Shown in pieces: positions 27,709 through 49,847 of a stretch of DNA of 64,000 bases. The DNA is from Bacteroidia bacterium (GTDB taxonomy: Bacteria; Bacteroidota; Bacteroidia; 2-12-FULL-35-15). The stretch spans positions 3,999 to 67,998 of the forward strand of contig JAVHPE010000126.1 in the NCBI GenBank assembly GCA_036170475.1, given 5' to 3'. Under the pieces are notes generated by a model. The model did not search any database. It was not told the origin of the DNA and saw only the letters and a list, made by a program, of their open reading frames with translations. A program made the position numbers and the translations under genes. Position 1 is the first letter of the stretch, and every line of letters begins with the position of its first letter.

Positions 27709-30700
27709 ATGAAAAAAATTCAAAATTTACTGATCCTTTCTTTTATTTACATCACTTCTATTTCTTATGCACAACTTGGAAAAGACGGCAATGGAAATAT
27801 TAATACGGCAAACCACATTGTAAATGAATATACTGATTTAACTTCAGATGCTACAATCGGTACTACTTCTATAAGTGTTTCAGCAAGCGGATTAAATGTG
27901 AATAATCGTTTTTCAGCTAACCTGGCTCCGGGCGATTTGATTATGATTATTCAGATGCAAGGCGCTACAATACTCGGACAGGCTGATTCAGCAAACCCTG
28001 TTACCAGCAACCCAAATGATGCTTCTTGGGGAAGTATAACCAATTATGGTAATTGTGGCAATTATGAATTATGCCAGGTAGCAGGCGTTCCTGATGGTTC
28101 TACCATTTCAATTGATTGCGGGTTAATAAACGGTTATACAGCCTCCGGGAAAGTACAAATAGTGCGTGTTCCACGATATAATACTTTAACAATAACATTG
28201 TCGGGTGTTTTAACATGCCAGCCTTGGAACGGAACAACAGGAGGTATTTTAGCTGTTGAAGTTCATGGCAGCACAACAATAAATGCCGGTGGAAAAATAA
28301 GCGCAGTTGGCAAAGGTTTTAGAGGTGCTTCATTATTTACTCCCACCCCTCCCCGCTCCCAAACTCTTTGGTACTCATCTACAAGCCTTGAAGTATCTGC
28401 CAACAAAGGAGAAGGTATTGCCGGATTCGACAATGATTATACAATTTATGGAGGGAAATACTGCAGAGGGGCGGCTGCTAATGCAGGTGGTGCAGGTAAT
28501 GTATGGAACGCAGGAGGTGGGGGGGGCGCTAATGCAGGATCAGTTGCTTCATGGACAGGTCAAGGAAATCCTGACACAAGTATAGCAGGATGGAGCACTG
28601 CTTGGAACCTTGAATCGCCCGGTTTTGCATATACTTCATCATCAGGCGGAGGCAGAGGAGGATATTCGTTTTCAGGTTCCAATCAAAACGCACTTGTTGA
28701 TCCTCCCAGCGATCTTATCTGGGGAGGCTATGCACGTGAAATTAACGGAGGCTTAGGAGGACGACCATTAGATTATTCAACCGGCAAAATTTTTATGGGT
28801 GGTGGTGGTGGCGGTGGTGAACAAGATAATAACCAAGGAGGAGTTGGAGGTGCAGGCGGGGGAATTATTTTCTTTACTTCTTATGGAACCATTACAGGCA
28901 GCGGCAATGACTCCATTATTGCTGACGGCAGCCATGGCGGAGATTCTCATACAACACCTCCTTTATCCAGCTATAGCGGAAAAGATGGATCCGGAGGAGC
29001 AGGAGGTGGAGGAACAATACTACTCAATGAATCTGGCATTAATGGACTTATATTATCTGCTCAGGGGGGCATAGGTGGTAATCAGGTTCTTACAAGAGGT
29101 TCATTGTATTTTGGAGCTATGAATGAAGCTGAAGGACCAGGAGGAGGAGGAGGAGGAGGATATATTGCCCTTTCTTCAGGTTCTGTAACACAAATAACTG
29201 ACGGTGGTTTCAGCGGAATTACTAATTCTGACGCGTTAACCGAATTCCTCCCGAATGGAGCAACCAAAGGTGCCGCAGGAATAATCAATCAAACAATTCC
29301 AAGAATTGATACAATTTCTGCTGCCAGTATGACTATTTGTGCAGGGGATTCTGCTACCCTTACTGCTACAATTGATGGAACAATTCCTGCCACACTTACT
29401 TGGTATAATGCACAAACAGGAGGCTCCATAGTTGGAACAGGTACATTTAATACATCTGCTTTATCAATTACTACTACCTATTATGTCGGGTTATGCCCGG
29501 GAACTTACAGAATTCCTGTAGTTGTAACAGTAGATCCGAGTATTGCATCAGTAAATATTTCACAAAACCCAACCGGTTCCATTTGTCCAGGAACACCCAT
29601 TACATATACTGCCGTCCCAACTACAGGAGGAACCTTACCTGTTTATCAATGGCTTGTAAATGGGTTATCTGTTGGAACTAATGCCGTTTCATTCACCAGT
29701 TCGACATTAATCAACAATGACACAGTAATTTGCATCATGACACCAAATTCCGTTTGTGCTTCAGGCATTCCTGTAGTATCTAATACAATAGTACTATCAG
29801 TAACCCCAAATGTAACGGCATCAGTAAATATTACATCCATACCTTCAGGACCAATATGTGCAGGCACTTCAGTAACTTTTACTGCAACGGCTGTTAATGG
29901 TGGAACAATCCCTGTATTTCAGTGGCAGCGGAATGGAATAAATATCGGAGGTAATTCTAATATTTATAGTAGTTCCTCCTTATCAAATGGTGATGTCGTA
30001 GTTTGTATACTTACTTCAAATGCTGATTGTGTTTTGAATTCCCCTGCAACATCCAATTCAATTACAATGGTAATATACCCTTTACCAATACCAGGCATTA
30101 CCTCAAATACAAACAGTGGATGTTATCCTATGTGTATTCAGTTTAACGAAACCAGCGGAGCTACATATAACTCCGTAATTTATACCTTCGGAGATGGCGA
30201 TTCGTCCACAACAATGGCTCCTCAACATTGTTATACGCAAATTGGAACTTATTCTGTAACCATTACCTGCACTGATGCAAACGGGTGCATAGGTACAACT
30301 CTGAACTCAAATATGATAACGATAGGCTCTAATCCTATCGCAGATTTTTCTTCTTCTCCCACAAATGTTATTACAGCAAACACTATTGTTTCTTTTACAG
30401 ATATATCAACAAATAGCGTTGTATCGATGTGGAATTTTGGGGATCCTGGCTCAGGTATAGATAACAGTTCATATTTATCATCACCTTATCATACTTATTC
30501 ATCCGCCGGAACATATTGCATAGAACTGACTGTACAAAATCAGTTTGGTTGTATGGATTCTACCAATGAATGCCTAACGGTTACTAATGATGCAGCCATA
30601 ACTATTCCTAATGTATTTTCTCCAAATGGCGATGGCATTAACGATAAGTTTTTTATCACGCTTACTGCAATAAAAGAGTTGAGCTGCAGTATTTTTGACA

Positions 30701-41094: not shown

Positions 41095-41493
41095 ATGAAA
41101 AAAATAATATCAATCTTATTACTTGCGATAGCCGTAACAAGTACCTCATGTAAAAAACCTGCCGGTGAAGGTGGTAATTCTTCTATTAAAGGAAATATAT
41201 GGGCACAAAAATGGAACAGTACATTTACAACGTTAACAAGTGAAGGTGCCGGAGAGAATATTGATGTTTTTATAATTTATGGATCCGAAACCAGTTATGG
41301 ACATAAAATTTCTACCAGTCCGGATGGGACATTTGAGTTTAATTATCTCCGTCCCGGTTCATATAAAGTATATGTATATTCAAAAACAACAACTACCGCT
41401 AATGCAAACGGTAAAGTTGCTGTTTCTGTTGATGTAGAAATTACTAAGAAAAAACAAGCCGTTGATGCCGGGAAAATTACGGTTAATATTTAA
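41095..41493 (+). CDS. lipoprotein with carboxypeptidase-regulatory-like beta-sandwich
   Basis: Lipobox VTSTSC, and PDGTFEFNYLRPGSYKVYVY. Confidence 0.45.
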   Translation: MKKIISILLLAIAVTSTSCKKPAGEGGNSSIKGNIWAQKWNSTFTTLTSEGAGENIDVFIIYGSETSYGHKISTSPDGTFEFNYLRPGSYKVYVYSKTTTTANANGKVAVSVDVEITKKKQAVDAGKITVNI

Positions 41494-41618
41494 AATTCAT
41501 ACAAATCAAGAATGATTACTAATTTACTAAACTGTATATATAAAGTAGCAATTTCTGTTTCGTAGATTCGTTTTTTATTTGTTATTCGTAACCCCCATCA
41601 CTATCCAAAGAATATACT

Positions 41619-42188
41619 ATGAAAACAAAAGCAGTTGTATTTATTATTGTGATGATTAGTTTTAGTTTAGCTATTCATTCCCAAGGCAAAAAAACAGTTA
41701 AAAAATTTAAAATTAAATCAACCAGTGTTTCGATTATGGAAATGGTTGATGGTAAAAGCAAAACACGTACAGACTCTTACCAAAAATACGATAATTCAGC
41801 TCATGTGATTGAAGATGTTGAATATAATAAAGACGGGACTTTCAAGAAAAAAGAAACAAAAAAATTCAACAAAAATGAAGATCCTATTGAGGAAGTTATA
41901 TATGATGAAAAAGGAAATTTTAAAAAGAAAACTACTACTGAATACAATACTAACAAGGATAAAACATCGGAAAATGTTTTTGACAGTAATGACAAATTAA
42001 TAGAAAAAACAGTTTTTGGTTATAACACAAAGGGAGAAAAAACCTTTGAGCTGACTACTGATGATAAAGGAAAAGTAATAAAAAATTCAATTTATTCGTA
42101 TGATAAAAATGGTCTTAAAATTGAGAAAAAAACAACGGATGCAAATGGTAATTTTCTTTCAACAAAAAAATATACTTACGAATATTAA
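41619..42188 (+). CDS. secreted Lys/Thr-rich repeat protein
   Basis: Signal peptide present. About five repeats of Yxx(D/N)xxGxxxxKxTxxYNxxxDKTxE... Confidence 0.45.
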   Translation: MKTKAVVFIIVMISFSLAIHSQGKKTVKKFKIKSTSVSIMEMVDGKSKTRTDSYQKYDNSAHVIEDVEYNKDGTFKKKETKKFNKNEDPIEEVIYDEKGNFKKKTTTEYNTNKDKTSENVFDSNDKLIEKTVFGYNTKGEKTFELTTDDKGKVIKNSIYSYDKNGLKIEKKTTDANGNFLSTKKYTYEY

Positions 42189-42244
42189 AATTGGAATATC
42201 TTAAAAATAGTTTGGGCAGCTTTACCCCCATTTCATTAGAAAAA

Positions 42245-42946
42245 ATGGACAAAGTAAAACTGATGGACAGAACAGATACAAAGTATGTTTTTACATTAGC
42301 TCAACTACCAATTCTTCTTGCTGAACTTAAACTGGATTACCATATTGTTGATATAAACGGCAACAGAATCAGCAGGTACGAATCGCTTTATTTTGATACA
42401 AAAAAGTTTGATTTATATCATTGCCATCATAGAGGTAAGCCAAACCGTTTTAAGATACGTTTTAGAAAATATGTTGAGTCTGAAATCTGTTTTTTCGAAG
42501 TAAAATTTAAAAACAATAAAGGAAGAACCATCAAAGATCGTGTAAAACAAAAACAAATTAATAACACAATAAATGGTAAAGCGGAAATTTTATTGAAAGA
42601 AAAAACACCTTTGCTTCCAATTCATTTAGAACCAAAGTTGTGGGTAAATTATTCACGAATTACATTAGTAAATAAAAATTCTCCCGAACGTGTTACTATT
42701 GATATCGACTTAAATTTTAAAAATAATGAGCAGACTATATCTATTAAAAATCTGGTAATTGCTGAAGTAAAACAAAATAAAGCGTTTAGTTCGGCATTTA
42801 CCAAACTAATGAAAAAATACCATATAAGGGAAGGTTCTATCAGTAAATATTGTTTTGGAGTAATAAGTCTGTTTAAAAAAATAAAACATAATAATTTTAA
42901 GCCCGATTTAAATTTACTAAAGAAAATACTTTATACTAAAATCTAA
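42245..42946 (+). CDS. VTC-domain (polyphosphate polymerase domain) protein
   Basis: KVKLMDRTDTKYVF...YESLYFDT...FKIRFRKY is the VTC/CYTH-like signature. The listed ORF begins at a TTG, so the start was moved to the first ATG (MDKVKL). Confidence 0.75.
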   Translation: MDKVKLMDRTDTKYVFTLAQLPILLAELKLDYHIVDINGNRISRYESLYFDTKKFDLYHCHHRGKPNRFKIRFRKYVESEICFFEVKFKNNKGRTIKDRVKQKQINNTINGKAEILLKEKTPLLPIHLEPKLWVNYSRITLVNKNSPERVTIDIDLNFKNNEQTISIKNLVIAEVKQNKAFSSAFTKLMKKYHIREGSISKYCFGVISLFKKIKHNNFKPDLNLLKKILYTKI

Positions 42947-42951
42947 TCATT

Positions 42952-43578
42952 ATGATTCTACTACAGGAAATTAGCGAAGAAGCCGTTAAATCGGGATTTG
43001 AGTTGTTTGACAAGTTAGGACCTAAATTTTTCATCCGCATAGGAATAAATTTTGCCTCTGTATTTATCCTTATCCGGTTTATATATTTTCGAAGATATAA
43101 AAGCAGTGAAAACTTTTTTACATTTTTTATTTTTAACCTCATTATTTTTCTGATTACGTTTATTCTAAATAAATCAGATATGAGTATGGGTGCCGCATTT
43201 GGGTTGTTCGCTGTTTTTTCTATGTTACGATACCGAACAGAAGGAATTAGCACAAAAGATATGACCTACCTGTTTTTGGTTATTGCAATGGGATTAATTA
43301 CAGCCTTAAGCAAAGGCACTTGGTTTGAATTAATATTTCTTAATATTCTTATTATTCTATCCACGTATTTGCTTGAAAGCAGCATGCTGATGAAAAAAGA
43401 AGAAACCAAAATAATACAATATGAAAATATTGAAATGATTCAACCCGAATTTCATACTGAACTAATTGCAGATTTAGAAAAACGAATGGGAATTAAAATC
43501 AATCGCATCTCTATTGGTAAAGTTGATTTTTTAAAAGACACCGCTTTAATAAAAATTTATTATTATGAGTCGAAATAA
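42952..43578 (+). CDS. DUF4956 domain-containing membrane protein (usual VTC partner)
   Basis: GAAFGLFAVFSMLRYRTEGISTKDMTYLFLVIAMGLITAL, immediately downstream of the VTC gene. Confidence 0.75.
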   Translation: MILLQEISEEAVKSGFELFDKLGPKFFIRIGINFASVFILIRFIYFRRYKSSENFFTFFIFNLIIFLITFILNKSDMSMGAAFGLFAVFSMLRYRTEGISTKDMTYLFLVIAMGLITALSKGTWFELIFLNILIILSTYLLESSMLMKKEETKIIQYENIEMIQPEFHTELIADLEKRMGIKINRISIGKVDFLKDTALIKIYYYESK

Positions 43579-43588
43579 GCAAAAGTGC

Positions 43589-44287
43589 ATGTCTTCATTG
43601 AAGGGAAAAGGTATATTGTCGCTGTTTTTCATCACTTTTAGCGTTAGTATAAATAGTTTTTCACAGCCAGTAAATGATGCTGGTATGTGGACAACATTTA
43701 ATGTGGATAAAAAAATTAAAAATGATGTTTCCATCTTCTTAACCGAAGAATACCGGTTGAAAGAGAATTTCACACAAACTAATTTGTTTTATTCTGAATT
43801 AGGACTTGAGATTCGTCCATTGAATTTTCTGAAAGTATCCTTGGCATACCGGATGATTGAAAAAAATTTAATTGATAACACCTTTAGCTTTCGCCACCGC
43901 ATGATGCTAAATATCACATTTAAAAAAAAATTGAAAAAAATTTCCTTGTCTTATCGTCAACGAATTCAAGCCGAAGAAAGAAATATATATTCCAGTGCGA
44001 ACGGAAGGATGCCCGAATGGTATTCAAGAAATAAATTTGAACTGAAATATGATTTAAATAAACCTGTTACACCCTATATCGCGGCTGAATTTCGCTATCA
44101 GATTAACGATCCAAGGAATACTGAATCCAACGGATTATGGCATCGTAGCCGTTATATTATTGGCATAGATTATAAAAGAAACGATAAAAATACATTTGGC
44201 TTGTATTACTTAATTCAAAATGAATACAATGTTTCTTCCCCTGAAAATTTATACATTGTCGGTTTGGAATATTCGTTGTCTTTATAA
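43589..44287 (+). CDS. putative outer-membrane beta-barrel protein (DUF2490-like)
   Basis: Signal peptide ILSLFFITFSVSINSFSQP, alternating amphipathic beta-strand pattern, C-terminal aromatic (LEYSLSL). Family call tentative. Confidence 0.4.
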   Translation: MSSLKGKGILSLFFITFSVSINSFSQPVNDAGMWTTFNVDKKIKNDVSIFLTEEYRLKENFTQTNLFYSELGLEIRPLNFLKVSLAYRMIEKNLIDNTFSFRHRMMLNITFKKKLKKISLSYRQRIQAEERNIYSSANGRMPEWYSRNKFELKYDLNKPVTPYIAAEFRYQINDPRNTESNGLWHRSRYIIGIDYKRNDKNTFGLYYLIQNEYNVSSPENLYIVGLEYSLSL

Positions 44288-44290
44288 AAA

Positions 44291-45487
44291 TTACCTCCTT
44301 TTTCCACCACCACTTCCCCTATTACCAGATTTTGACCCCGAGCTGGGAGTAGAATGTGAAGCAGGACTTGCATGATGCTCTGAACGATTTTGTTTAACTG
44401 ACGGCGACGACTTTTTATTTTCCTTCATTCTGTTACCTTTATTGTTGCTATTATTGTTACTCTTATTATCATTCCCAACTGAAACATTCTTTTCATTTCT
44501 TGTATCCTTATGAAACCCATCTTTAGTAGACTTGTTGTTGTCAACAGATGAATTTGTTCCTTTATCTTTACCTGACGAACGTCCTTCTTTAATTTGATCT
44601 GAACTCGCCCTGTCATACGTATTTTTATATTCTCCCTTTTCTCTTCTTTGATTTACAGTTGCTGACGTTGTTCTTCTCTGCCCGTAGTAATCATGAGCAT
44701 TCGAATTACGATAATGATCTGATCGGTGGTAATAACCATAATAATCATTATAATGATGGTAATGGTAGCCATAATAATAGGAATGCCAGTACAACGGTGC
44801 CCAAGGATTCCAATATCCGGGGTAATAACCCCAACTCCATGGAGAAACATATACTACATACGATGGGAAAAACAGGTAATGAATAATGCTCCAGCTTCCT
44901 ACCGGGTGCCAATAATCATTTATAGTGTTTGTAGAATTGTAATAATTATTAGTTATAGTAGTCGTTTTTTTATCGCCGGATCCTGAGTTAGCAGAGTTGG
45001 CAGATTTAGCACCCGTATATCCCGGATTCGGTGTTCCTCCTGTTGTGGTTTTTTCCACTTCATCTTTTGGTTCAATTATATAATTTTTCCCGTATAGCTG
45101 CTCATCGCCTATAATCTGAATCTGAACTTTTTCATTCTTATCTTTTTCAACTTCAATTACGGCAACATCCTGAGTTTCTTTTTCATTTACCGCTACCTGA
45201 AGAACAATAGCATGTGCAGTTCCTTTCACATTATCTTTTACACTAATATAGTCAATCTTACCATTGCCATTCAAATCAAGATTATTGACTTTAGAATCTT
45301 CAGCATTTAGTTTTTTCTCAAATTCTTCTAATGTTTCAGATTTTTGAAAAAGATCCAGAACACCGTAAAGATTTAGGTTATCTCCCGGCAAACCCAATGA
45401 GTCAGGGGTTATTTTTTCCTGAGAGAAAACAGGAGAGCATAAAAGACTACCTCCTATTATTGTTGCGAAAAACAGCGCTTTTTTCAT
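44291..45487 (-). CDS. secreted protein with Ca-binding-like N-domain and extreme Tyr/His/Trp-rich, then Ser/Asn/Lys-rich, low-complexity tail
   Basis: Signal peptide present. DLNGNGKIDYISV loop. WHPVGSWSIIHYLFFPSYVVYVSPWSWGYYPGYWNPWAPLYWHSYYYGYHYHHYNDYYGYYHRSDHY, followed by a basic polar tail. Confidence 0.5.
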   Translation of the reverse strand: MKKALFFATIIGGSLLCSPVFSQEKITPDSLGLPGDNLNLYGVLDLFQKSETLEEFEKKLNAEDSKVNNLDLNGNGKIDYISVKDNVKGTAHAIVLQVAVNEKETQDVAVIEVEKDKNEKVQIQIIGDEQLYGKNYIIEPKDEVEKTTTGGTPNPGYTGAKSANSANSGSGDKKTTTITNNYYNSTNTINDYWHPVGSWSIIHYLFFPSYVVYVSPWSWGYYPGYWNPWAPLYWHSYYYGYHYHHYNDYYGYYHRSDHYRNSNAHDYYGQRRTTSATVNQRREKGEYKNTYDRASSDQIKEGRSSGKDKGTNSSVDNNKSTKDGFHKDTRNEKNVSVGNDNKSNNNSNNKGNRMKENKKSSPSVKQNRSEHHASPASHSTPSSGSKSGNRGSGGGKRR

Positions 45488-45639: not shown

Positions 45640-46119
45640 GTCCCCCTTGTGAGTTGGACTGTGGGATTGCGAAGGGGGCAGGGGGATGAAAATCTGTTAT
45701 TCATGAACAACCATTACAATAAAAAGTTAAAATCCTTCGCTCAAAGCAATAGAAATTTTTCAACTAAAGCGGAAATAAGAATTTGGTGTGAATTATTGAG
45801 AAATAAAAAAATGTTAGGGTTCCCGTTTTTACGTCAACGACCAATTGAGAATTATATAGCTGATTTTATGTGTAAAGAACTAAATTTGATAATTGAAATT
45901 GATGGCTATTCTCATCAATTCAAATATGAGGAAGATATTGAAAGAGATGACAGACTAAAACAATTGGGATTTCATGTTCTGCGTTTTACAGATGACGAAA
46001 TAACAAAACATATTACAAATGTTGAACGTGCTATTATTCAATGGATAGATAATAAAGAAAAACAATTTCATCCCCCTGCCCCCTTCACTGACGCACATTC
46101 AATCACACAAGGGGGACAA
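45640..46119. mobile_element. DUF559 endonuclease gene bounded by about 49-bp imperfect terminal inverted repeats
   Basis: Left GTCCCCCTTGTGAG-n17-GAAGGGGGCAGGGGGATG at 45640-45688. Right (reverse complement) GTCCCCCTTGTGTG-n17-GAAGGGGGCAGGGGGATG at 46069-46119. Confidence 0.55.
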
Positions 46120-46131
46120 AAAAACAGATAA
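45703..46131 (+). CDS. DUF559 (Vsr-like) endonuclease domain protein
   Basis: NRNFSTKAEIRIWCELLRNKKMLGFPFLRQRPIENYIADFMCKELNLIIEIDGYSH...RDDRLKQLGFHVLRF is the DUF559 signature. Start set at MNNHY. Confidence 0.8.
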   Translation: MNNHYNKKLKSFAQSNRNFSTKAEIRIWCELLRNKKMLGFPFLRQRPIENYIADFMCKELNLIIEIDGYSHQFKYEEDIERDDRLKQLGFHVLRFTDDEITKHITNVERAIIQWIDNKEKQFHPPAPFTDAHSITQGGQKNR

Positions 46132-46377
46132 ATGCTAACCAATAACGATATACTAAAAAAAATACGTGTAGCTCTTGAGCTCAAAGATGAAGATGTGGTA
46201 AAAATCCTTAAGCTGGCTGACTTTGAAATTTCAAAAAGTGAATTAAATGCCCTCTACCGCAAGCCCGATCATGCCAACTATAAAGAGTGTGGAGATCAGT
46301 TATTACGTAATTTCCTGAATGGATTAATTATTTTTAAACGAGGTCCAATGCCGCCAAAAAAGCAAGAAGCAATTTGA
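46132..46377 (+). CDS. DUF1456 (YehS-like) domain protein, single-repeat form
   Basis: MLTNNDILKKIRVALELKDEDVVKILKLADFEISKSELNALYRK. Confidence 0.6.
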   Translation: MLTNNDILKKIRVALELKDEDVVKILKLADFEISKSELNALYRKPDHANYKECGDQLLRNFLNGLIIFKRGPMPPKKQEAI

Positions 46378-46407
46378 CAATTCGGCAGTAGGAAATTATT
46401 AAGCAAT

Positions 46408-48765
46408 ATGGAGGAATTTATACCAACAACAACTGATCAGGCTTTAGTTGCTTCCCGATTTATTAATTCTACTAATAAAAATGTATTCCTTACGGGTAAA
46501 GCGGGAACAGGTAAAACCACGTTCCTGCGGCAAATTGTAATTCACACCTACAAAAAATGTTTAATTGTTGCTCCCACCGGAATTGCGGCTATTAATGCGG
46601 GAGGCGTTACAATTCACTCTTTGTTTCAATTACCCTTTGGATCGTTCGTCCCTGTTAACCAATCCCCGCACAATTTTCAGGTAAATGTAAAAATAAATGA
46701 TCCACTTTCTGTTATCAAAAACCTTCAGATGTATGACTCTAAACGTAAACTTTTACGTGAATTAGAGTTATTAATTATCGATGAAGTAAGTATGCTGCGT
46801 GCCGATTTACTCGATGCCATTGATCTAGTTCTACGCCATGTAAGAAGAAGAAATAATCAGCCTTTTGGCGGAGTTCAGGTATTATTTATCGGCGACTTAT
46901 TGCAGCTTCCGCCCGTTGTAAAAAACGAAGAATGGGAACAGTTAAAACCTTTTTACAATAGCATTTATTTTTTTGACGCACAGGTATTAAAAAACAATAC
47001 ACCGGCATATATTGAATTAGACAAAATATACCGGCAGACAGATCAACGCTTTGTTGACTTATTAAATCATCTTAGAAATAACGAGATATCAGCCGAAGAT
47101 ACTACCTTATTAAACACCTATTATAAACCAAATTTTAAAGCAAGTCCATCGGATAAATACATTACTCTCACTACTCACAATTATAAAGCAAACGAATTAA
47201 ATAAAAATTTACTGAGCAGATTGCACGGTAAATCATTTTTCTTTGAAGCCAAAATAGAAGATGATTTCAACGAACATGCCTACCCTATTGAAAAAACGCT
47301 AGAATTAAAAATAGGTGCACAAATTATGTTTATAAAAAATGACCCTACCGGTGCTCAACGTTTTTTTAATGGTAAAATCGGTCTTGTTTCCGCTATCAAT
47401 AATGCTATTATTGAAATAAAGTTTGATGACACTTCAGATCCAATTAAGGTGGAACATTATATATGGCAAAATTTAAAATATAAATTGAATGAAACAAACA
47501 ACGAAATTGAAGAAGTGATAACAGGTACTTTTACACAGTACCCAATTAAATTAGCCTGGGCGATAACTGTTCATAAAAGTCAGGGACTTACCTTCGATAA
47601 AGCTATAATTGACGCTAGTGACGCCTTTGCTCCCGGACAAGTATATGTCGCTTTATCGCGTTTGAGATCATTGGATGGCTTGGTGCTGACTTCAGCAATA
47701 AATTTTAATTCAATTAATCAGGATAGTAAAATTAACGCCTATTCTAAAACGCAAATAGAACAACAAAATCTGAATGAGCTTTTAACAAGTGAAACCTACC
47801 AATTTTTAAAGGAGTATGTATTAAAAAGTTTTGACTTTAATTCCCTTACCAAACAGTGCGAGGAGCATACCGATAGTTATGTAAAAGATGAAAAAAAATC
47901 TACAAAACAAAGGCATCACAAATGGGCGCGGGAATTGGAAAAAGAAGTAAAAGAAATCAAGCCTCATGCTGATAATTTCAGACATCAAATACTTTCAATC
48001 ATTGATAAAAAAGAAACAGGACACCTTGATTTTCTTCATAAAAGAGTGCTTGCGGCTTCCGCTTATTTTTCTCCGATTTTTAAAAACCTGACCAACAAAA
48101 TATTCCGACACATATTAATTCTGAAATCAGAAAAAAAAATAAAAACCTACCTGAATGAGTTATTATCACTGGAACTTATTGTTAATGAACAATACAAACT
48201 CATAAATAAAGCCGCACTTTTAATACAAGCAAGCATTACCAACAAGGAGATTACTAAAGCGGAGGTTGCAAAACTAAGTCTGGATTCACATCGGCTGGAG
48301 CAACTGAATATGATCTTCAATGCTGCGGTAAAAAGTAAAGCTACTAAAGAAAAAAAGAAAAAAATTACTGCCCTTAATCCCATATCTTCAGCCACTGCCG
48401 GAACAAATACCGATGAAGGGCTGAAATACGAAGCAAAAAAAGATACGAAAGCGGAAACATTTAAACTTTACAAACAGGGTAATACCATTGAATCTATCGC
48501 TAAATTACGGTCTATGGCAACAGCCACAATAGAAGGTCATTTAGCTTATTTTATTACCAAAGGAGAGCTGAATGCCTGTGATTTTTTATCCGCTGAAAAA
48601 ATAAAAAATGTGATAAGCGTTTCAAAAAAATTAGATACATTTCAATTCGGTTCGATAAAACAAGCATTAGGAGATGAATATAGCTATGGAGATATTAAAA
48701 TAGCCATCGCTTCTTATCTTTCAATTTCCCAGAAAAAAAAAGAAAGAACTTCAGAAAAGGAATAA
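46408..48765 (+). CDS. PIF1/RecD-like SF1 DNA helicase with long C-terminal helical/HTH extension
   Basis: Walker A FLTGKAGTGKTT, LLIIDEVSML, FIGDLLQLPPV, and C-terminal VHKSQGLTFD...VALSRLRS motifs. Confidence 0.8.
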   Translation: MEEFIPTTTDQALVASRFINSTNKNVFLTGKAGTGKTTFLRQIVIHTYKKCLIVAPTGIAAINAGGVTIHSLFQLPFGSFVPVNQSPHNFQVNVKINDPLSVIKNLQMYDSKRKLLRELELLIIDEVSMLRADLLDAIDLVLRHVRRRNNQPFGGVQVLFIGDLLQLPPVVKNEEWEQLKPFYNSIYFFDAQVLKNNTPAYIELDKIYRQTDQRFVDLLNHLRNNEISAEDTTLLNTYYKPNFKASPSDKYITLTTHNYKANELNKNLLSRLHGKSFFFEAKIEDDFNEHAYPIEKTLELKIGAQIMFIKNDPTGAQRFFNGKIGLVSAINNAIIEIKFDDTSDPIKVEHYIWQNLKYKLNETNNEIEEVITGTFTQYPIKLAWAITVHKSQGLTFDKAIIDASDAFAPGQVYVALSRLRSLDGLVLTSAINFNSINQDSKINAYSKTQIEQQNLNELLTSETYQFLKEYVLKSFDFNSLTKQCEEHTDSYVKDEKKSTKQRHHKWARELEKEVKEIKPHADNFRHQILSIIDKKETGHLDFLHKRVLAASAYFSPIFKNLTNKIFRHILILKSEKKIKTYLNELLSLELIVNEQYKLINKAALLIQASITNKEITKAEVAKLSLDSHRLEQLNMIFNAAVKSKATKEKKKKITALNPISSATAGTNTDEGLKYEAKKDTKAETFKLYKQGNTIESIAKLRSMATATIEGHLAYFITKGELNACDFLSAEKIKNVISVSKKLDTFQFGSIKQALGDEYSYGDIKIAIASYLSISQKKKERTSEKE

Positions 48766-49105: not shown

Positions 49106-49381
49106 TTATTTTTTCTTTTTACCACCTTTTTTTGCGGCAGCTTCAGCTTCAGCAGCTTTTGCAGCTTCTTCAGCAGCGGTAGCATCAGCAGCAGCTTTAG
49201 CAGCAGCTTCAGCAGCGGCAGCCTCTTCAGCAGCTTTAGCGGCGGCAGCAGCAGCGGCTTCTACTTGTGCTATTGAATCTTTTGTAGCTTTTTCTTTAGC
49301 AGCTTTTTCTTCAGCGCTTGGTCCACAAGCAGCGAATGTAAACACACCTGCTAGGGCAACTAATGTAAATACTTTTTTCAT
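49106..49381 (-). CDS. Ala/Lys/Glu-rich small lipoprotein (paralog 1)
   Basis: MKKVFTLVALAGVFTFAACG lipobox, then an AEEKAAKEKA...AAAKAAEEAAAAEAAAKAA helical low-complexity stretch and a KKGGKKKK tail. Confidence 0.65.
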   Translation of the reverse strand: MKKVFTLVALAGVFTFAACGPSAEEKAAKEKATKDSIAQVEAAAAAAAKAAEEAAAAEAAAKAAADATAAEEAAKAAEAEAAAKKGGKKKK

Positions 49382-49526: not shown

Positions 49527-49847
49527 TTAACCTCTTCCTTGACCAGGTTTAACCGGTGCTGGCTCAGCCTTTTTAACGGGCTTAGCTTTTCCACCTTTTT
49601 TTGCAGCTTTTGCAGCTTCTTCAGCAGCAGCAGCATCAGCAGCAGCTTTAGCAGCAGCTTCAGCAGCAGCAACTTCGGCAGCTTTTGCAGCTTCAGCAGC
49701 AGCAGCAGCTTGAGCAGCAGCAGCTTCTACAACAGCAATTGAATCTTGTTTTGCTTTTTCTTTAGCGGCTATTTCTTCAGCGCTTGGTCCGCATGCATAG
49801 AATGAAAACATTCCTGCTACGGCAACTAATGTAAGTACTTTTTTCAT
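49527..49847 (-). CDS. Ala/Lys/Glu-rich small lipoprotein (paralog 2)
   Basis: MKKVLTLVAVAGMFSFYACGPSAEEIAAKEKAKQDSIAVVEAAAAQAAAAAEAAKAAE... About 70% identical to paralog 1 over the N-terminal 40 aa. Confidence 0.65.
   Translation of the reverse strand: MKKVLTLVAVAGMFSFYACGPSAEEIAAKEKAKQDSIAVVEAAAAQAAAAAEAAKAAEVAAAEAAAKAAADAAAAEEAAKAAKKGGKAKPVKKAEPAPVKPGQGRG

Follow-up and report, generated by a model that had tools for sequence, protein, structure and literature searches.

What a bacterium might do with a homologue of the polymerase domain of the eukaryotic VTC complex is the question raised by a stretch of a Bacteroidia genome (GenBank assembly GCA_036170475.1, contig JAVHPE010000126.1, positions 3,999 to 67,998 of the forward strand; these 64,000 nucleotides are called the window here, and all coordinates are counted from its first base), in which the genes for a VTC-domain protein and a DUF4956 membrane protein stand side by side. 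The original prediction, made from the letters alone, saw in them a conserved pair, co-oriented with genes for a lipoprotein, a secreted Lys-rich repeat protein (Krep) and an outer-membrane barrel, and proposed an envelope-located system for polyphosphate (polyP) or metal handling. All six open reading frames (ORFs) of this segment are present (Table 1), and the five that lie in one direction on the + strand (41095–44287) are spaced as in an operon, with gaps of 2 nt between the Krep and VTC genes and 5 nt between the VTC and DUF4956 genes, a 14-nt overlap of the DUF4956 and DUF2490 genes, and a single larger intergenic gap of 125 nt between the lipoprotein and Krep genes; the co-orientation is thus borne out. 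We put at about even the chance that the five genes constitute a single operon and that it encodes a polyP system spanning the envelope, with a bacterial counterpart of the eukaryotic VTC polymerase at its core. Contigs from three sequencing runs carry an identical VTC protein in an unchanged gene order, the nearest named genomes are metagenome-assembled genomes of uncultured Bacteroidota or Bacteroidia, and a search of NCBIfam provides no name for any of the operon proteins.

Gene order around the pair is strongly conserved across Bacteroidota loci. An alignment of DUF4956 homologues was used to fetch 80 loci, on one-genome-per-species contigs and all from Bacteroidota, and when their ORFs were called and clustered the largest clusters proved to be the window's own genes (VTC 79, DUF4956 77, DUF2490 72, Krep 58, lipoprotein 42). 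Labelling by hidden Markov models (HMMs), with the three contigs of the window's own organism excluded from the counts, places VTC directly upstream of DUF4956 in 68 of 71 Bacteroidota loci, DUF2490 directly downstream of it in 64 of 73, Krep two genes before it in 45 of 63, and the lipoprotein no more than five genes upstream in 36 of 63. Most often the genes run Lipo-Krep-VTC-DUF4956-DUF2490, either as such or with a gene for a CotH kinase in front. Together with a second collection of metagenome loci described below, in which VTC is directly upstream in 63 of 67, these counts establish VTC and DUF4956 as the conserved pair they were proposed to be, in a neighbourhood that is itself conserved in relatives. 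Cultured carriers among the loci collected include Emticicia, Runella, Flectobacillus, Dyadobacter, Pseudoalteromonas and Deinococcus. In 10–11 Cytophagales loci a LytS-type histidine kinase and a LytTR response regulator adjoin CotH and the VTC module (for example L009 819-2512 and L050 2511-4595); this two-component pair, absent from the window, is a candidate regulator of the operon.

The VTC domain assignment holds in a profile search. The Pfam match (Table 1) scores 110.5 bits against a cutoff of 23, and residues 27–228 cover profile positions 2–235 of 235. A PDB search with the single sequence gives no match and a profile is required; with a profile of 44 Bacteroidota relatives, Vtc3, Vtc2 and Vtc4 are the sole meaningful PDB matches (E of about 2e-3 to 8e-3). 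HMM alignment to full-length Vtc4 (8i6v_E) equates K31 with K200, R90 with R264, R92 with R266, K105 with K281, Y154 with Y359, R156 with R361 and R167 with R373, and each of these residues is invariant in the 44 sequences, except for Y154, which is at least 90% conserved. In the cryo-electron microscopy study of the VTC complex, Vtc4 residues K200, R264, R266, K281, Y359 and R361 are triphosphate ligands whose mutation lowers polyP, R373 is not among the ligands, E426 binds Mn2+, and K458 is the only one of these residues that is replaced (by Ile or Leu) in the inactive Vtc2 and Vtc3 (bioRxiv 10.1101/2023.01.27.525886). E192 (in AEVK) and S218-K219 (in SISKYC) are also invariant in the 44 bacterial sequences, with a spacing of 27 residues versus 32 in Vtc4, and motif and spacing suggest that they correspond to E426 and S457-K458. 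This match stays at the level of motifs because no alignment to the C-terminal part of Vtc4 was obtained; a half-length C-terminal VTC profile misaligned across the eukaryotic insertion, and a 49-column C-terminal profile had no match to Vtc4. Neither a signal peptide nor a transmembrane (TM) helix is present in the protein, whose net charge has a median of +14. Vtc4 carries its SPX, tunnel and three-helix membrane domains in one chain, and the 251-residue protein is the VTC domain alone, a stand-alone triphosphate tunnel domain and putative cytoplasmic polyphosphate polymerase.

DUF4956, its partner, is a family of 1523 clusters at 50% identity (E<=1e-3), and in the window protein residues 33–204 match profile positions 1–169 of 169. 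An AlphaFold2 model built from 125 diverse sequences reaches a predicted local distance difference test score (pLDDT) of 90.3 and a predicted template modelling score of 0.78, and was used in place of a run on 24 close homologues, which was discarded with a pLDDT of 63. In this model an N-terminal helix and five TM helices (helices at 23–49, 55–74, 79–96, 101–119 and 124–142) are followed by a beta-alpha-beta-beta domain of ACT-like type at 150–205. Foldseek gives weak matches of about 60 residues to the ACT domains of TyrA, the acetohydroxyacid synthase small subunit and aspartate kinase, and a search of PDB structures with the model yields no informative match. Loops 1 and 3 are basic (mean Lys plus Arg of 2.7 and 3.0), loops 2 and 4 are not (0.7 and 0.5), and the N-terminal tail is acidic; the predicted topology is therefore N-out, C-in. 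The most conserved element of the family, R93-Y94-R95-T96...K/R102-E/D103-x-T105-Y106, is nearly invariant in the 125 diverse members and lies on loop 3, on the cytoplasmic side.

Four long DUF4956 representatives are predicted fusions and speak to the same topology. P0129, P0201 and P0223 are DUF4956-DUF2490 proteins and P0156 is a DUF4956-CotH protein, and every one of them keeps the signal peptide (DUF2490) or lipobox (CotH) of the partner right after the DUF4956 C-terminal domain; because such an internal export signal follows it, the C-terminal domain would be cytoplasmic and the partner exported. The fusions could be real proteins with internal cleavage, or products of read-through or assembly artefacts, and since such artefacts are possible we treat them as supportive only. 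The C-terminus of DUF4956, and hence conserved loop 3, is predicted to lie in the cytoplasm, the compartment expected for a VTC protein without a signal, and we infer that the two make contact there. By analogy with the eukaryotic complex, DUF4956 is a putative membrane partner or conduit of the VTC enzyme.

The same architecture admits a second reading, which we consider quite unlikely: DUF4956 could be an MgtC-like regulator that modulates a membrane machine or phosphate/ATP homeostasis, with the VTC protein making or destroying a small tri- or polyphosphate signal that the ACT-like domain detects. Small ligands are what ACT domains usually bind, and five TM helices followed by a C-terminal ACT-like domain are also the plan of MgtC, which is how the authors of a study of Streptococcus intermedius describe their homologue. 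In that organism the DUF4956-type mutant makes more of the exopolysaccharide Pel and the CotH mutant makes less (PMC12345266), an outcome that looks regulatory. No MgtC relationship emerges from the sequences: Pfam finds DUF4956 only and no MgtC (PF02308) match, and hhalign of the 125-sequence alignment against Escherichia coli YhiD gives a probability of 0.16%, in what is a weak test with a single-sequence template; YhiD itself matches MgtC at 5e-39. A regulatory role would make the barrel and the secreted proteins co-regulated outputs, and it leaves unexplained both the fusions of DUF4956 to the barrel and the barrel, including a phosphate porin, that is the near-constant next gene in diderms.

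That barrel is the third element on which the polyP reading is built. The Pfam match of the window's DUF2490 protein extends over residues 40–224, preceded by a hydrophobic signal sequence ending in ...SFSQ, and there are about 210 mature residues; DUF2490 proteins have conserved Arg positions and a median net charge of +9. The family is listed as a putative porin family, TC 1.B.81 (PMC4827864). In a Pseudoalteromonas plasmid the gene that starts 1 nt after DUF4956 is of a different family, Porin_O_P, and three DUF4956 representatives close to the Pseudoalteromonas protein are encoded in the orders VTC-DUF4956-Porin_O_P-CotH, CotH-VTC-DUF4956-Porin_O_P, and partial upstream ORF-DUF4956-Porin_O_P. 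A metagenome scan with this Pseudoalteromonas-like DUF4956 subgroup produced 80 loci, 73 of them with a callable DUF4956, and these constitute a second clade, on marine and sediment contigs, of which Pseudoalteromonas is the sole named member. In this clade the next gene after DUF4956 is Porin_O_P, on the same strand, in 64 of 68 loci and DUF2490 in one of 68; CotH is no more than three genes away in 36 of 50. No Porin_O_P gene occupies the slot after DUF4956 in any of the 73 Bacteroidota loci. The Pseudoalteromonas sp. CuT4-3 plasmid locus itself (L084 6297-6993, identical in metagenome locus L097) has a degenerate VTC locus with DUF4956 and Porin_O_P intact, a 164-residue ORF with a lamin-tail domain overlapping a 104-residue remnant that retains only the last 45 VTC-domain positions; it looks like a deletion of CotH and most of VTC.

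The Porin_O_P assignment is confirmed by Pfam in all 37 diverse operon-linked porins tested (best E=2.8e-70), and their profile matches Pseudomonas aeruginosa OprO and OprP (4rjw, 2o4v) at E~1e-54. Wild-type OprO (4rjw) differs from an engineered variant (4rjx) at two positions, F62 and D114, and at the corresponding columns (residues 67 and 114 of the first sequence) the operon-linked porins, from loci L093-L172, have Arg or Lys in 31 of 37 and Lys in 36 of 37, which suggests a constriction more basic than in either characterised porin. DUF2490 was considered as a Porin_O_P homologue and rejected; the window protein has no Porin_O_P match in Pfam, hhalign against the operon-linked porins gives a probability of 1.7%, and the link is positional only. 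Because the two families have no detectable homology, it is the slot that is kept while the barrel family changes: in diderms the place behind DUF4956 belongs to an outer-membrane barrel, whose family differs by clade and in one clade is that of phosphate-anion specialists.

OprO and OprP are classically uptake channels for phosphate and pyrophosphate, made under phosphate starvation, and the operon-linked porins are their clear homologues, so the porin argument leaves the direction of transport unfixed. The main rival of export is import, which we regard as unlikely but by no means negligible: the barrel would admit external pyrophosphate, polyP or phosphate, DUF4956 would carry it inward, and the tunnel enzyme would shorten or use the chain, as a tri- or polyphosphatase or a polymerase run in reverse. 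It is in keeping with import that in a Shinella plasmid (L086 6962-9288), where the order is reversed to DUF4956 then VTC, the pair is followed by a gene for a phytase-like esterase of phosphate-scavenging type, and that the acidic residue of the beta1 motif R-x-D-x-K is kept as in the hydrolytic CYTH enzymes. Porins are passive, however, and favour neither direction; the Lys equivalent to Vtc4 K458, which separates active Vtc4 from the inactive Vtc2 and Vtc3, appears to be conserved; and the partners are a secreted CotH and exported basic proteins rather than a periplasmic binding protein, an ABC transporter or a phosphatase. The Gram-positive counterpart of the module, moreover, is found in exopolysaccharide (Pel) loci and affects aggregation. 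In the same Shinella locus a divergent gene with a lysyl-phosphatidylglycerol synthase domain precedes the pair, and a phospholipase D-like gene lies farther upstream on the other strand.

Returning to export of polyP, the exported products of the operon are net basic (Krep median +5, DUF2490 median +9). The window Krep has 35 Lys in 168 mature residues, with hairpin motifs resembling YD repeats (for example YSYDKNG and FGYNTKG), and in 55 distinct sequences there is a median of 28 Lys per 168 mature residues and a net charge that is always positive, from +1 to +17; it is probably periplasmic or located at the surface, and none was seen in loci of proteobacterial type. The lipoprotein has Pfam matches below the cutoff to fn3_3 (3e-5) and CarboxypepD_reg (2e-4), of beta-sandwich type, and its lipobox (SCkK..GeGG) and a core motif (dG.fEF.YLr.G.Yk.YvYS) are conserved in 40 distinct sequences. 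A secreted CotH kinase is encoded no more than four genes away in 38 of 76 Bacteroidota loci, as an extra upstream gene, and often has a lamin-tail domain and a C-terminal sorting domain for type-IX secretion by Pfam. There is none in the 64-kb window by tblastn with five CotH proteins (best E=0.38), and the window is thus a typical Bacteroidota member of the module, minus CotH.

The known substrates of CotH in Bacillus, CotB and CotG, are Lys- and Ser-rich repeat proteins and in this recall Krep. They bear on a reading that does without free polyP as the product: the tunnel enzyme would act together with CotH to add phosphate or polyphosphate to a polymer or protein of the envelope, such as an exopolysaccharide or Krep, on a DUF4956 scaffold. 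The association of VTC, DUF4956 and CotH with Pel loci would suit this, as would the glycosyltransferase and epimerase genes that lie just upstream of the operon in the window. The glycosyltransferase genes are not conserved with the module, though, being confined to contigs of the same organism, the co-occurrence of Krep and CotH in related loci is not strict, and the window lacks CotH; of the explanations set out here it is the one to which we attach the least weight. A variant that starts from export, in which polyP threaded through DUF4956 and the barrel serves as phosphoryl donor or surface coat and supports ATP-independent extracellular phosphorylation, with CotH, where present, using it on Krep or exopolysaccharide, is a slim prospect in our estimation; if true, bacteria would have a route, not described before, for the secretion of an inorganic polymer.

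The pair is not confined to Bacteroidota, as we also find it in Deinococcota, Pseudomonadota and Actinomycetota, on plasmid records. Deinococcus has CotH-VTC-DUF4956 with no barrel gene at the locus, in Aminobacter the match overlaps both DUF4956 and the gene with the polymerase domain, and in Streptomyces the adjacency of the pair is given by our own ORF labels only. Published accounts report the pair in streptococci, clostridia and bifidobacteria, and the VTC/DUF4956(/CotH) cluster has been noticed in NELoc-2 of Clostridium perfringens and in Gram-positive Pel loci, with no barrel listed there. In S. intermedius, deletion of SIR_1592, the membrane protein that adjoins a polyP-polymerase-domain gene and that we take to be the DUF4956-type partner, or of the CotH homologue alters aggregation and the amount of Pel; the authors leave the mechanism open and state that they did not find the triad outside Pel loci (PMC12345266). 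Contrary to that statement, the triad is widespread outside Pel loci in the loci collected here. Bacteroides thetaiotaomicron BT3498-99 are an adjacent DUF4956/DUF2490 pair, and a literature search for BT3497-99 returned one entry in a transcriptome table, not significant, and nothing beyond it; in the literature searched, this table is the single place where the adjacency of DUF4956 and DUF2490 is seen.

Of the two functions in the original prediction, envelope polyP is the best-supported reading, from the catalytic residues, the predicted cytoplasmic C-terminus of DUF4956 and the phosphate-porin swap; there is no pointer to metal handling, which we have dropped because neither the operon nor its conserved neighbours include a metal-binding or metal-transport family. 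The mechanism that we propose begins with the soluble cytoplasmic VTC protein, which would extend a polyP chain from ATP in its basic triphosphate tunnel. Given the pairing and predicted topology, the enzyme would dock at the inner membrane on DUF4956, which would receive the chain at its Arg-rich cytoplasmic loop and pass it across the inner membrane or into it, as the Vtc1/3/4 channel suggests by analogy. The polyanion may then be handled or held in place by net-positive Krep and the lipoprotein, whether in the periplasm or at the outer membrane, and the DUF2490 barrel, judging by its fixed position and its replacement elsewhere by OprO/OprP-type porins, may provide outer-membrane passage or an anchor; in about half of related loci a secreted CotH kinase would complete the system. 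The product would be periplasmic, surface or extracellular polyP, rather than cytoplasmic granules of the type made by polyphosphate kinase (PPK). The probable role of the operon is to carry a phosphate polymer across the cell envelope, by a route that is not described for bacteria in the searchable literature, and the narrower proposal of a bacterial VTC-type polyphosphate synthase coupled to envelope translocation we hold with evenly balanced confidence.

Several observations weigh against this proposal. The equivalences to E426, S457 and K458 derive from motif and spacing, three attempts at alignment having given none, and in the beta1 motif the Asp at -2 from the Lys, about 90% conserved, stands where Vtc4 has a Thr and recalls the ExExK (Glu) of hydrolytic CYTH enzymes, not Vtc4. 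Pfam and structure searches reveal no sequence or structural similarity of DUF4956 to the Vtc1/DUF202 channel or to any solved transporter, and because there is no such likeness its role as a channel is an analogy; the monomer model moreover has no obvious pore. Barrel models in a preprint show a buried Arg/Glu/Tyr charge network inside many DUF2490 barrels (238 members), and a plugged small barrel or anchor therefore fits better than an open pore. The uptake role of OprO and OprP, discussed above, belongs here too. Deletion of the VTC homologue SIR_1593 in S. intermedius has no reported aggregation phenotype (PMC12345266). The system was predicted to be uncharacterised and appears to be so: in the literature available to us, which is short on subscription journals, we found no biochemical study of a bacterial VTC-domain protein, and no enzymatic or polyP measurement for any member. 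Nor did we find a description of the five-gene Bacteroidota operon or of its Porin_O_P variant, for which prior work may exist in subscription journals.

Recent reviews describe PPK as the prokaryotic and VTC as the eukaryotic type of polyP polymerase, a picture that would change if bacteria had a widespread VTC-type enzyme working with an inner-membrane partner and a dedicated outer-membrane barrel. If the proposal is true, it offers a genetic handle on periplasmic, surface and extracellular polyP, a testable context for CotH kinases outside sporulation, and a role for three domain families that so far have none assigned. The periplasmic, surface and extracellular pool of polyP has been linked to biofilms and aggregation, to the manipulation of host cells and to the cycling of phosphorus in the sea; marine and sediment metagenomes are the source of many porin-type loci.

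Table 1. The operon and its convergent neighbour in the window
Gene product	Length (aa)	Coordinates	Strand	Pfam family	Remarks
Small lipoprotein	132	41095-41493	+		First gene of the operon
Krep, secreted Lys-rich repeat protein	189	41619-42188	+	No family	Signal peptide
VTC-domain protein	251	42191-42946	+	VTC, PF09359, E=1.2e-31	
DUF4956 inner-membrane protein	208	42952-43578	+	PF16316, E=1.1e-53	
DUF2490 outer-membrane beta-barrel candidate	240	43565-44287	+	PF10677, E=2.1e-22	Last gene of the operon
Secreted Tyr/His/Trp-rich protein	398	44291-45487	-	No family	Converges on the operon

Contrary to what had been proposed, the sixth gene of the segment does not belong to the system. In its 398-residue product the loop DLNGNGKIDY resembles an EF-hand and the stretch WSWGYYPGYWNPWAPLYWHSYYYGYHYHHY is extremely rich in aromatic residues and His; the protein belongs to a large family (at least 4186 matches, here only in Bacteroidota, with no Pfam domain); only 3 nt separate its stop codon from that of DUF2490. 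Because it is absent from all 80 related loci, and adjoins the module in this organism alone, we consider it a chance neighbour. The upstream glycosyltransferase and epimerase genes were likewise rejected as components, since they recur solely in contigs of this organism. Beyond the convergent gene (45649-48765, +) are a 160-residue ORF, an 81-residue ORF and a 785-residue protein that contains the Walker A motif GKAGTGKTT and, by eye only, resembles helicases of PIF1/RecD type. Two paralogous small lipoprotein-like ORFs of 91 and 106 residues (49106-49381 and 49527-49847, both on the - strand) have a signal sequence whose last residue is Cys and, after it, a low-complexity helix rich in Ala, Glu and Lys (AAKAAEEAAA...). 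There is a local G+C peak of 0.435 at 28001-30000 against a background of about 0.34, and no rRNA or tRNA genes or Rfam families were found anywhere in the window. Matches to sigma-70-type promoters are not above chance (30 against 24.9 +/- 5.2 expected), with a consensus that is ill-suited to Bacteroidota.

Comparison with known systems places the operon between several of them. Like PPK1 and PPK2, the window enzyme would make polyP from a nucleoside triphosphate, but the folds are unrelated, and the PPK enzymes give cytoplasmic granules and have no dedicated membrane or outer-membrane partners. With the MgtC family (Salmonella MgtC and E. coli YhiD) DUF4956 shares the arrangement of five TM helices and a small cytoplasmic ACT-like domain, and both are tied in the literature to phosphate/ATP physiology, although there is no sequence similarity and MgtC is not paired with a VTC-domain enzyme. 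Second-clade homologues of P. aeruginosa OprO and OprP fill the exact operon position held in the window by DUF2490, which is smaller and has no detectable homology to them, and at the positions of OprO F62 and D114 these porins have Arg/Lys and Lys, respectively. The triad of Gram-positive Pel loci (S. intermedius SIR_1594-1592 and C. perfringens NELoc-2) has the same VTC and DUF4956 proteins, usually with a secreted CotH, whereas the window operon lies outside any Pel locus, has no adjacent CotH, and adds three diderm-specific genes, those for the lipoprotein, Krep and DUF2490.

The closest comparison is with the eukaryotic VTC complex (Vtc4, Vtc3 or Vtc2, and Vtc1). The Pfam VTC catalytic domain is the same. 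Six ligands are matched by alignment, and motifs suggest candidate counterparts of E426, S457 and K458. A polytopic membrane protein always accompanies the soluble tunnel domain, and the product presumably ends up in a compartment other than the cytoplasm. The window system differs in having no SPX domain and in that the catalytic domain is a separate protein, not fused to a membrane domain; no relationship can be detected between DUF4956 and the DUF202 domain, of three helices, in Vtc1/3/4, and the bacterial side has in addition an outer-membrane barrel, basic proteins that are exported and, often, a secreted CotH. We take the window system to be a new form, in bacteria, of the principle behind the VTC polymerase-translocase, put together from other membrane components.

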